From Escherichia coli (lineage in GTDB: Bacteria; Pseudomonadota; Gammaproteobacteria; Enterobacterales; Enterobacteriaceae), in NCBI RefSeq assembly GCF_017348835.2, contig NZ_CP071375.1: a DNA stretch of 64,000 bases; one strand, given 5' to 3'. Position 1 is the first letter of the stretch. Every line of letters begins with the position of its first letter. The translations under genes and the position numbers were made by a program. Shown here piece by piece: positions 4,173 through 7,100 of the stretch. The notes below the pieces were generated by a model. The model searched no databases and was not told where the DNA came from. It saw nothing but the letters and a program-made list of their open reading frames with translations.

Positions 4173-7100
4173 ATGAAATTTATGAACAGAATCAGTCGCT
4201 ATTATTTTCACCGCTCAGTACTTTCCTTATTGATATCTGCCATGATATATGCCCCTCCCGGGATGACGGCTTTCACTTCTAATGTTATTGGCGTTGTAAA
4301 TGATGAGACTGTAGACGGCAGCCAAAGAGTAGATGAACGAGGTACAACAAATAATGCTCATATCATCAATCACGGCAATCAGGAGGTATATGGCGGGATT
4401 TCTAATGGAAGTGTTATTGATACTGGTGGACATCAAGAGGTATCTGGTCATGGCTCTTATCAGGGGCAGGCTAATAATACAGTCATTAACGGTGGCAGCC
4501 AGACAATTAGTGAGGGAGGAATTTCTACAGGGACGATAATTAACGATAAAGGAACAATGTCAGTTTTAACGAATGCTAAAGCTGATGCGACCCGAATAGA
4601 TAATGGCGGGGCCATGGATGTTGCCGGGAACGCGACTAATACCATAATTAATGGCGGTACACAGAATATTTATAATCATGGTATTGCTACGGGAACCAAT
4701 ATCAACAGTGGCACGCAAAATATCAAGAGCGGCGGGAAAGCTGACACAACAAATATCGCTTCCGGGAGCAAGCAGGTTGTTGAGAAAGGAGGTACGGCAA
4801 CTGGCAGCAATATTCGCGCCGGAGGTACGCTGATTGTCGATACCGGCGGTATCGCACATGGGGTTTACCTGGACACGGGGAGTGCTTTAGTTGCCAACAC
4901 GGGCGCGGGGACTGATATTGACGGATACCAGAGGTCATCTCACTTCACTATTACCGGAGGCAGGGCTGAGCATGTTGTGCTGGAAAATACCGGCGAACTG
5001 ACGGTCGTAGCTCAAACCTCGGCGGTAGATACCATCGTTGATGCTGGCGGTAAGATGATTGTCCACGAGGAGGCCGTAGCATATACCACCAGACTTAACA
5101 ATGGCGGCACACTCGATGTGCGGGAGAAAGGCAGCGCAACGGGGATACAGCAGAGTAGTCAGGGCGCGTTGGTTGCAACCACCAGGGCGACGCGTGTCAC
5201 AGGGACACGCGCTGATGGCATCGCGTTCAGCATCGAGCAGGATGCGGCGAACAATATCCTGCTGGCAAATGGCGGCGTGTTAACCGTGGAGTCAGACACC
5301 ACTTCCGCCAAAACACAGGTCAATACGGGCGGACGGGAGATCGTCAAAACAAAAGCCACTGCGACAGGCACGACGCTCACCGGCGGCGAACAAATCGTCG
5401 AGGGTGTGGCGAATGAGACAACGATTAACGACGGCGGAATACAAACAGCTTCGGCTAACGGTGAGGCAATAAAAACAACGATCAATGAAGGCGGTACGCT
5501 GACAGTCAACGATAATGGCAAAGCGACAGATATCCTCCAGAACAGCGGTGCCGCTCTCCAGACGAGCACGGCTAACGGTATTGAAATCAGCGGTACTCAC
5601 CAGTACGGCACTTTTTCCATTTCCGGAAATTTAGCGACCAATATGTTGCTGGAAAATGGCGGTAATTTATTGGTATTAGCAGGTACCGAAGCCCTTGACT
5701 CCACGGTTGGCAACGGTGGGGCAATGCAAAACCTGGGTCAGGACTCCGCCACAAAGGTTAACTCTGGCGGGCAATATACCCTTGGGCGGTCAAAAGATGA
5801 GTTTCAGGCTCTGGCCCGGGCAGAAGATCTCCAGGTCGCTGGCGGGACGGCAATCGTCTACGCAGGTACGCTGGCGGATGCATCGGTCAGTGGTGCGACA
5901 GGAAGCCTGTCGTTAATGACGCCACGGGATAATGTTACGCCAGTTAAACTCGAAGGGGCGATCCGGATTACCGATAGCGCGACATTAACTATCGGCAATG
6001 GCGTTGATACGACGCTTGCTGACCTGACGGCTGCCAGCCAGGGCAGTGTCTGGCTTAACAGCAATAATTCCTGTGCAGGTACCAGCAACTGCGAATATAG
6101 AGTAAACAGTTTGCTACTCAACGACGGTGATGTTTATTTATCAGCGCCTGCCACAACTAACGGTATCTACAATACGCTGACCACCAGTGAACTTTTCGGC
6201 AGCGGTAACTTCTACCTGCATACCAACGTTGCAGGCTCCCGGGGCGATCAACTGGTCGTCAGCAACAACGCCACTGGTAATTTTAAAATCTTTGTTCAGG
6301 ATACCGGCGTCAGCCCACAGTCTGACGACGCGATGACGCTGGTGAAAACAGGGGGAGGGGATGCTTCGTTTTCGCTGGGCAATACCGGCGGTTTCGTTGA
6401 TCTTGGGACCTATGAGTATGTCCTGAAAAGTGACGGCAACAGCAGCTGGAACCTGACCAATAATGTCAACCCAAACCCAAACCCAAACCCAAACCCAAAC
6501 CCAAACCCAAACCCAAACCCAAACCCAAACCCGACTCCCGATCCAACGCCGACACCCGTTCCGGAGAAACGCATCACGCCTTCTACGGCAGCTGTACTCA
6601 ATATGGCAGCAACATTACCGTTGGTATTTGATGCTGAGCTAAACAGTATTCGCGAGCGGTTGAACATAATGAAAGCGAGTCCACACAACAAAAATGTCTG
6701 GGGGGCGACGTATAACACCCGTAATAATGTCACCACCGATGCGGGTGCCGGGTTTGAGCAGACGCTGATCGGAATGACAGTGGGGATCGACAGCCGTAAT
6801 GATATTCCAGAAGGAATTGCCACGCTGGGCGCTTTTATGGGTTATTCCCATTCACATATCGGTTTTGATCGCGGAGGTCATGGCAGTGTGGGCAGTTATT
6901 CTCTGGGCGGCTATGCCAGTTGGGAACATGAAAGTGGTTTCTATCTGGACGGTATCGTGAAGCTGAACCGTTTTGAAAGTAACGTAGCCGGTAAAATGAG
7001 CAGCGGTGGAGCCGCCAACGGTAGTTATCACAGCAACGGGCTGGGGGGGCACATTGAAACCGGGATGCGATTTACCGATGGTAACTGGAACCTGACGCCG

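Follow-up and report, generated by a model that had tools for sequence, protein, structure and literature searches.

Does a perfect short repeat within the coding sequence of a surface adhesin change in copy number from strain to strain and, if it does, by what process and with what effect on the protein? The question is raised by an autotransporter gene in a 64,000-nt stretch of Escherichia coli DNA (RefSeq assembly GCF_017348835.2, contig NZ_CP071375.1; hereafter, the window, meaning the whole of this stretch), in which the hexanucleotide AACCCA is repeated head to tail between the parts encoding the passenger and the barrel. Long perfect microsatellites other than mononucleotide runs are, on the whole, uncommon in E. 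coli; here, one of them sits in a surface adhesin and changes its copy number even on identical flanks. We consider it very probable that the array is an in-frame hexanucleotide variable-number tandem repeat (VNTR) in an intact AIDA-I-type autotransporter gene, driven by slippage and encoding a spacer between passenger and barrel. Variable repeats in surface proteins, autotransporters such as pertactin included, are well established, and the Asn-Pro (NP) array described here is a new example of them.

A perfect array in frame with an autotransporter gene

Read directly, positions 6468–6527 hold AACCCA ten times and positions 6528–6533 hold a single AACCCG. Tandem Repeats Finder (TRF) places the array at 6468–6532, with period 6, 10.8 copies, 100% matches, 0 indels and a score of 130, and finds no second array as long and as perfect in the 64-kb window. 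A three-unit probe with at most one mismatch allowed gives nine matches, all within the array, against 0.00 expected from 100 dinucleotide-preserving shuffles; the perfect head-to-tail repetition is beyond chance. The array shares its frame with the open reading frame (ORF) 4053..7484 (6468 − 4053 = 2415 = 3 × 805) and translates as NPNPNPNPNPNPNPNPNPNPNP, followed by TPDPTPTPVPEKR. The original prediction, made from the letters of the window alone, had described ten AACCCA units and one AACCCG in frame, giving (Asn-Pro)11, and sequence, TRF and translation agree with it exactly. An antisense ORF of 137 aa (6410..6823, minus strand) also crosses the repeat; we regard it as spurious, as such repeats remain open in several frames.

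The protein around the array, numbered from the ATG at 4182 that the NCBI Prokaryotic Genome Annotation Pipeline (PGAP) uses as the start in orthologues, has the architecture of a classical autotransporter (Table 1). At its far end is the C-terminal 12-stranded outer-membrane beta-barrel of type Va systems, recognised by the Pfam Autotransporter beta-domain PF03797 (residues 839–1078, E = 6.9e-46), by the NCBIfam model autotrans_barl TIGR01414 (318 bits against a cutoff of 16) and by an alignment to the BrkA translocator (3QQ2) that begins at residue ~818 (E = 3e-23). The passenger is of the AIDA-I kind, beta-helical, built of AIDA repeats and ending in a pertactin-like autochaperone: Pfam AIDA (PF16168) matches seven times at E <= 0.001 within residues 94–530, the strand-loop-strand repeat TIGR04415 reaches 121.9 bits (cutoff 30), and Pfam Pertactin PF03212 covers residues 641–759 (E = 6.9e-45), with residues 645–760 aligning to residues 419–534 of pertactin P.69 (1DAB). 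The alignment to the Vag8 chain (7AKV) begins at PVPEKRITPSTAAV. The N-terminus, MNRISRYYFHRSVLSLLISAMIYAPPGMTA-F, was picked by eye as a candidate Sec signal peptide.

The NP run (residues 763–784) falls between the Pertactin domain and the beta-domain and starts three residues past the pertactin-aligned domain. It thus sits directly after the autochaperone and before the segment predicted, by homology, to form the alpha-helical linker and the barrel, and the Pfam domains and structure alignments uphold the earlier placement of the repeat between passenger and barrel. We call the NP tract a spacer rather than a linker because, in autotransporters, the linker is the alpha-helix.

Table 1. Positions of the autotransporter gene, its domains and the repeat in the window
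Feature	Position	Strand	Basis
Gene of the AIDA-I-type (type Va) autotransporter, 1100 aa, intact counterpart of the K-12 pseudogene ycgI	4182..7484	+	Pfam, NCBIfam, synteny
Pertactin-like autochaperone domain, C-terminal end of passenger, residues 641-759, directly 5' of repeat	6102..6458	+	PF03212; 1DAB alignment
Hexanucleotide microsatellite (AACCCA)10 + AACCCG, encoding (Asn-Pro)11, residues 763-784	6468..6533	+	Sequence, TRF, translation, shuffles
Constant proline-rich tail TPDPTPTPVP, 3' of the variable array	6534..6563	+	ACTCCC GATCCA ACGCCG ACACCC GTT.. near-unchanged in all orthologues and the ypjA paralogue
Segment EKRITPSTAAVLNMAATLPLVFDAELNSIRERLNIM..., predicted alpha-helical linker through the barrel pore; boundaries approximate	6564..6695	+	Homology to 7AKV, 3QQ2
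C-terminal outer-membrane beta-barrel translocator	6696..7481	+	PF03797; BrkA beta-domain 3QQ2

Copy number varies among strains and stays in frame

Arrays were read in 24 NP-type alleles of this locus (the frameshifted LHM10-1 among them), in PapRG-06-5 and in two true ypjA genes, the paralogue discussed below; with the window included and LHM10-1 excluded, the set of intact alleles numbers 23. These alleles carry from 3 to 37 NP units in 18 distinct counts (Table 2), and all length differences among the alleles read lie inside the array, whose length is a multiple of 6 in 23 of 23. With a 366-bp query centred on the repeat, the shortest match span was 330 bp and the longest 528 bp. Among the best 60 spans, 59 differed from the query by a multiple of 6; the other came from a frameshift-annotated assembly whose array contains irregular A-runs. 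A locus-specific query of 1,533 bp (window 6318–7850, which takes in the minE-side flank) gave spans between 36 bp shorter and 162 bp longer than that of the window.

Length polymorphism between strains had been foreseen as likely, and the six-base unit had been expected to keep the frame upon slippage. Both expectations held, the first also among genomes with identical flanks, and the comparison of copy number across genomes, which had been proposed as the check, did not return the same repeat number everywhere.

Table 2. Number of NP units in intact alleles of the ycgI-locus autotransporter gene
Genome	NP units
O55:H7 CB9615-type	3
MEI003	8
2018-05-2CC	10
O169:H41 Res13	10
Window	11
P31_YH1	12
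F2_81	13
PE164	15
O55:H7 DEC5B	20
O157:H7 LSU61	22
06-00048	23
Second-haplotype genomes	24, 26, 27, 28, 29
O157:H- 493/89	26
TB06052	28
VCSW7	29
VCSW5	32
ET201	32
TB06051	35
VE-T9	37

A long perfect simple-sequence repeat in a surface-protein gene is the usual setting of a classical contingency locus, where the repeat acts as an on/off switch for phase variation. For this array, we give such a role next to no chance: a unit of 6 nt cannot shift the frame, which rules out a phase-variable contingency locus, and all 23 intact alleles are in frame. Of the two records with a frameshift annotation, LHM10-1 carries one that resembles a sequencing error, and in VCSW5 the array itself is in frame.

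Identical flanks and probable slippage

Changes in copy number can be followed most closely where the surrounding sequence has not changed at all. The window, F2_81 and PE164 have 0 mismatches over 1,360 nt of flank (130 upstream and 1,230 downstream), yet their pure AACCCA tracts count 11, 13 and 15 units; ET201 and VE-T9 have identical flanks and 32 vs 37 units, and VCSW5 and VCSW7, with one flank mismatch, 32 vs 29. On a second haplotype, taken to be ST405-like (ST, sequence type) going by strain names, six genomes with identical flanks carry 12, 24, 26, 27, 28 and 29 units. Copy number thus differs even where the flanks do not. The alleles of the second haplotype differ only within homogeneous sub-runs, of five, seven or eight AACCCG units and of six, seven or eight AATCCA units, except for the 12-unit allele, which shows one large internal deletion. 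The 60 best matches to this haplotype include length classes that are one unit apart: 1622 (15 matches), 1628 (20), 1634 (14) and 1640 (7).

This is the pattern to be expected if copy number changes by replication slippage in perfect tracts. In such a process, the AACCCA tract would gain or lose whole units through slipped-strand mispairing during replication, and out-of-register pairing would occasionally remove or add larger blocks. As the unit equals two codons, every change would be an in-frame insertion or deletion of Asn-Pro. In the mismatch repair of E. coli, MutS is poor at recognising loops of at least 5 nucleotides, and this would explain why a hexanucleotide tract is unstable in a repair-proficient species.

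The locus is an intact ycgI

At orthologous loci, the gene order is ymgG-ymgI-ymgJ-gene-minE-minD-minC. K-12 MG1655 has just a 344-bp pseudogene, ycgI, at the same position, and most other strains, BL21 among them, have a remnant similar to it. Given the synteny and the K-12 remnant at that position, we identify the gene between ymgJ and minE as ycgI in its intact form. The region is found in a small part of the species: window 6318–7850 is covered to at least 80% in 416 of the 5,426 complete E. coli genomes (~8%). The closest relative of the window gene, that of F2_81 (99.7% identity), has an IS903B transposase gene ending 86 bp upstream of the autotransporter start, an insertion absent in the window.

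PGAP names the orthologues 'adhesin-like autotransporter YpjA/EhaD'. The true ypjA lies next to ypjF, is longer (the K-12 coding sequence is 4,581 bp) and is ~92% identical at the nucleotide level over the shared gene; the window gene has neither the ypjF-side location nor the full-length similarity of a YpjA/EhaD orthologue. Judged by sequence and synteny, the ycgI-locus gene and ypjA/ehaD are paralogues, not orthologues. The locus had first been assumed to correspond to K-12 ycgH, an assignment rejected on the K-12 annotation, which gives ycgI between ymgJ and minE. The window has a ycgH homologue as a separate autotransporter upstream of ymgD, divided between two ORFs of 157 and 721 aa (173..646 and 670..2835, plus strand) and probably a pseudogene as in K-12. 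The junction of its passenger and barrel is a short Ser/Glu/Thr/Pro-rich segment (…SSEGNSESTETPTPVLRPEAG…) without a microsatellite.

How far the variation is real and the length selected

Two sets of observations weigh against our interpretation and deserve attention. First, LHM10-1 and VCSW5 carry frameshift annotations, and some of the length differences could be long-read assembly errors. Second, intact genes have anything between 3 and 37 units, and most E. coli have lost the gene, with remnants in K-12 and BL21; both facts argue that selection on the length, and perhaps on the whole gene, is weak.

Taken to its extreme, the first point would mean that the repeat or its variation is not biological, long-read assemblies being prone to err in repeats. 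We find this most improbable. Hundreds of independent complete genomes contain the array, its lengths differ by exact multiples of 6, and the internal order of the synonymous units is conserved across arrays. Moreover, parent and derivative records (2020N21-110, -15 and -24; 2022N21-074 and -17), as well as duplicate records, have equal lengths and therefore speak against assembly noise. As for the two frameshifts, that of LHM10-1 coincides with irregular A-runs within the array and that of VCSW5 lies at another place in the gene; sequencing error is the probable cause of both.

The second point bears on what the spacer does. The array, in which every second residue is proline, would form a hydrophilic spacer on the cell-surface side of the translocator, joining the autochaperone end of the beta-helical passenger to the alpha-helix that plugs the barrel. 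By analogy with known proline-rich segments, the likeliest role of (NP)n is that of a tether, hydrophilic and stiffened by proline, and a change in copy number would alter the length of this tether between passenger and barrel without turning the gene off. Calculated with extended polyproline II geometry at ~0.3 nm per residue, 3–37 units would span ~2–23 nm.

The composition of the tether is kept as its length varies. All 500 of the 500 NP units in the 23 alleles are AACCCA, AACCCG, AATCCA or AATCCG, which are synonymous; KP or DP occurs only at the end of an array, in its final one or two units, and the synonymous hexamer types keep a conserved internal order across arrays. The true ypjA has, at the same position and with the same TPDPTPTPVPEKR tail, a degenerate KP/NP/DP/IP array of ~15–16 dipeptides, and in an even sample of records, that array falls mainly into three length classes, of 378, 384 and 390 bp. 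In these sequences, purer arrays are less stable, the alternating-proline composition is conserved, and the length is only weakly constrained. At the ycgI locus of PapRG-06-5, a ypjA-like degenerate (K/N/D/T)P array stands in place of the NP microsatellite, which suggests either gene conversion between the paralogues or an origin of the pure NP tract by expansion from such an array.

We see an even chance that the spacer is a neutral, tolerated stretch of low complexity, in which an unstable array changes length without phenotype and drifts in a dispensable gene. Intact genes with such different unit numbers, the deletion of the gene in most E. coli (down to the K-12 remnant and the ~8% of genomes that keep the region) and the lack of an obvious preferred value among the one-unit length classes of a clone-like haplotype all agree with this. 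The NP dipeptide is, on the other hand, strictly conserved through synonymous hexamers, and an X-Pro pattern is also kept at this position in the paralogue; together, the two imply some constraint on the composition but show none on the length. A wide length range and frequent gene loss fit a largely neutral spacer at least as well as they fit altered exposure or antigenicity.

An adaptive, 'periscope-like' tuning, in which a selected copy number sets the reach of the passenger relative to O-antigen or capsule, or alters an exposed epitope, as has been put forward for the repeat regions of pertactin, is conceivable by analogy; we think it rather unlikely. The array does lie outside the barrel, where the passenger has its base, and its 3–37 units would, if extended, cover a wide range of distances; variation in stalk length is a described strategy of surface proteins (PMC9704523), and the proline-rich repeats R1 and R2 of pertactin differ in copy number by allele (PMC8931430). 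Against it, the gene is absent from most strains, and the gene family has been reported mainly as cryptic biofilm adhesins (PMC9289746). In its strongest form, the idea would make (NP)n a selected and fast-evolving 'height adjuster': slippage would generate sub-clones that hold the passenger 2 to ~23 nm above the outer membrane, and the thickness of O-antigen or capsule, or host antibody, would pick the length. We regard this form as improbable; were it true, the array would bring the periscope-protein principle into a classical autotransporter by means of a dipeptide of low complexity. More speculatively still, Asn-Pro bonds can cleave slowly via succinimide formation, and the array might thereby allow a spontaneous release of the passenger that depends on copy number.

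Comparison with known repeats

The closest analogue of the NP array is found in the proline-rich repeat regions of Bordetella pertactin. Pertactin R2 is at the C-terminal end of P.69, the same end as the NP array in its protein. Unlike for pertactin, we know of no link of the NP array to immunity or vaccines. Both proteins are classical autotransporters with a short, proline-containing tandem repeat whose copy number is allele-specific (PMC8931430). The pertactin repeats are R1 (GGxxP) and R2 (PQP), and the R2 region, unresolved in the crystal, has been suggested to be a stalk (PMC8931430). The array differs from them in its unit, two residues specified by a perfect hexanucleotide, in its far larger range of 3–37 and in its host, an AIDA-type adhesin of E. 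coli. Within the species, YpjA/EhaD (K-12, O157:H7) shares the architecture and has an X-Pro array at the same position, whereas its array is degenerate and has few length classes, its passenger is longer, and its locus is on the ypjF side.

Two further comparisons concern the spacer as a structure. The translation of the array shows an alternating-proline composition that may go with a rigid spacer of the polyproline-II type; an alternating X-Pro tract, (Glu-Pro)n/(Lys-Pro)n, is also found in TonB, another envelope protein of E. coli. The TonB tract is periplasmic and charged, the NP array extracellular and polar-neutral; as far as we know, no perfect microsatellite encodes the former, and its length is not notably polymorphic. 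TonB's proline-rich domain has been described as an extended polyproline II rod that spans distance (PMC5413942). What defines periscope proteins is a tandem series of highly identical domains, each of which folds independently (PMC9704523). The likeness to them is that the number of repeats in the DNA sets the length of the segment holding the functional domain off the cell surface (PMC9704523), and the NP array does vary in repeat number between closely related strains. Its unit is, however, the dipeptide Asn-Pro rather than a folding domain, and without repeats of folded domains, we do not count the array among periscope proteins.

At the DNA level, the array resembles the E. coli loci CVN001–CVN017 used in multilocus VNTR analysis (MLVA), of which CVN014–017 have 6-bp repeats, in that a 6-bp repeat varies between close isolates; the copy number of CVN014 differs within ST131, ST648 and ST38 (PMC3407997). 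The NP array differs from these loci in being present in just ~8% of complete genomes. The published primers for generic E. coli MLVA (PMC8143711) were mapped with as many as 3 mismatches permitted: none has a site in the window, and none of ten primers (CVN007, CVN014–017) has one at the ycgI or ypjA loci tested; we therefore reject the array as a published generic MLVA locus.

The hexanucleotide itself is by no means confined to E. coli. Among GTDB representatives (one genome per bacterial species), there are at least 120 stretches of (AACCCA)5 or longer, in many phyla, one of them with 93 perfect units. By the longest open frame, such tracts read in all three sense frames, giving (NP)n, (TQ)n or (PK)n, and in the antisense direction they read (GL)n, (GF)n or (VW)n. 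No homologue of the ycgI-locus autotransporter stands beside (AACCCA)n among the matches listed (tblastn, 1e-5). We found no prior description of the NP repeat in the searchable literature on ycgH/ycgI, ypjA/EhaD and autotransporter linkers, a body of text that leaves most subscription journals outside.

Uses of the array and other repeats in the window

The variation has some practical consequences. The repeat accounts for the proneness of the gene to misassembly, frameshift annotation and fragmented protein clusters. It might serve as a high-resolution typing marker for the ~8% of complete genomes with the intact gene, such as those of the second haplotype and the O55:H7/atypical O157 lineage, and the natural series of 3–37 Asn-Pro units offers a way to ask how the length of the tether bears on the secretion of autotransporters and the exposure of adhesins.

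Other repeats in the window are of a different kind. A leucine-rich-repeat protein (23692..24597, minus strand) has an acidic, LE/LD-rich repeat tail, for which TRF reports 9-nt arrays at 23846–23962. Adjoining its gene is a two-ORF transposase element resembling the IS3 family (24654..25867, plus strand), and an ORF at 25674..26441 (minus strand) contains 12/36/72-nt repeats (TRF 25979–26116) encoding a QEDL/QENL-rich sequence. The leucine-rich-repeat gene and this last ORF may be one gene split by the insertion element.

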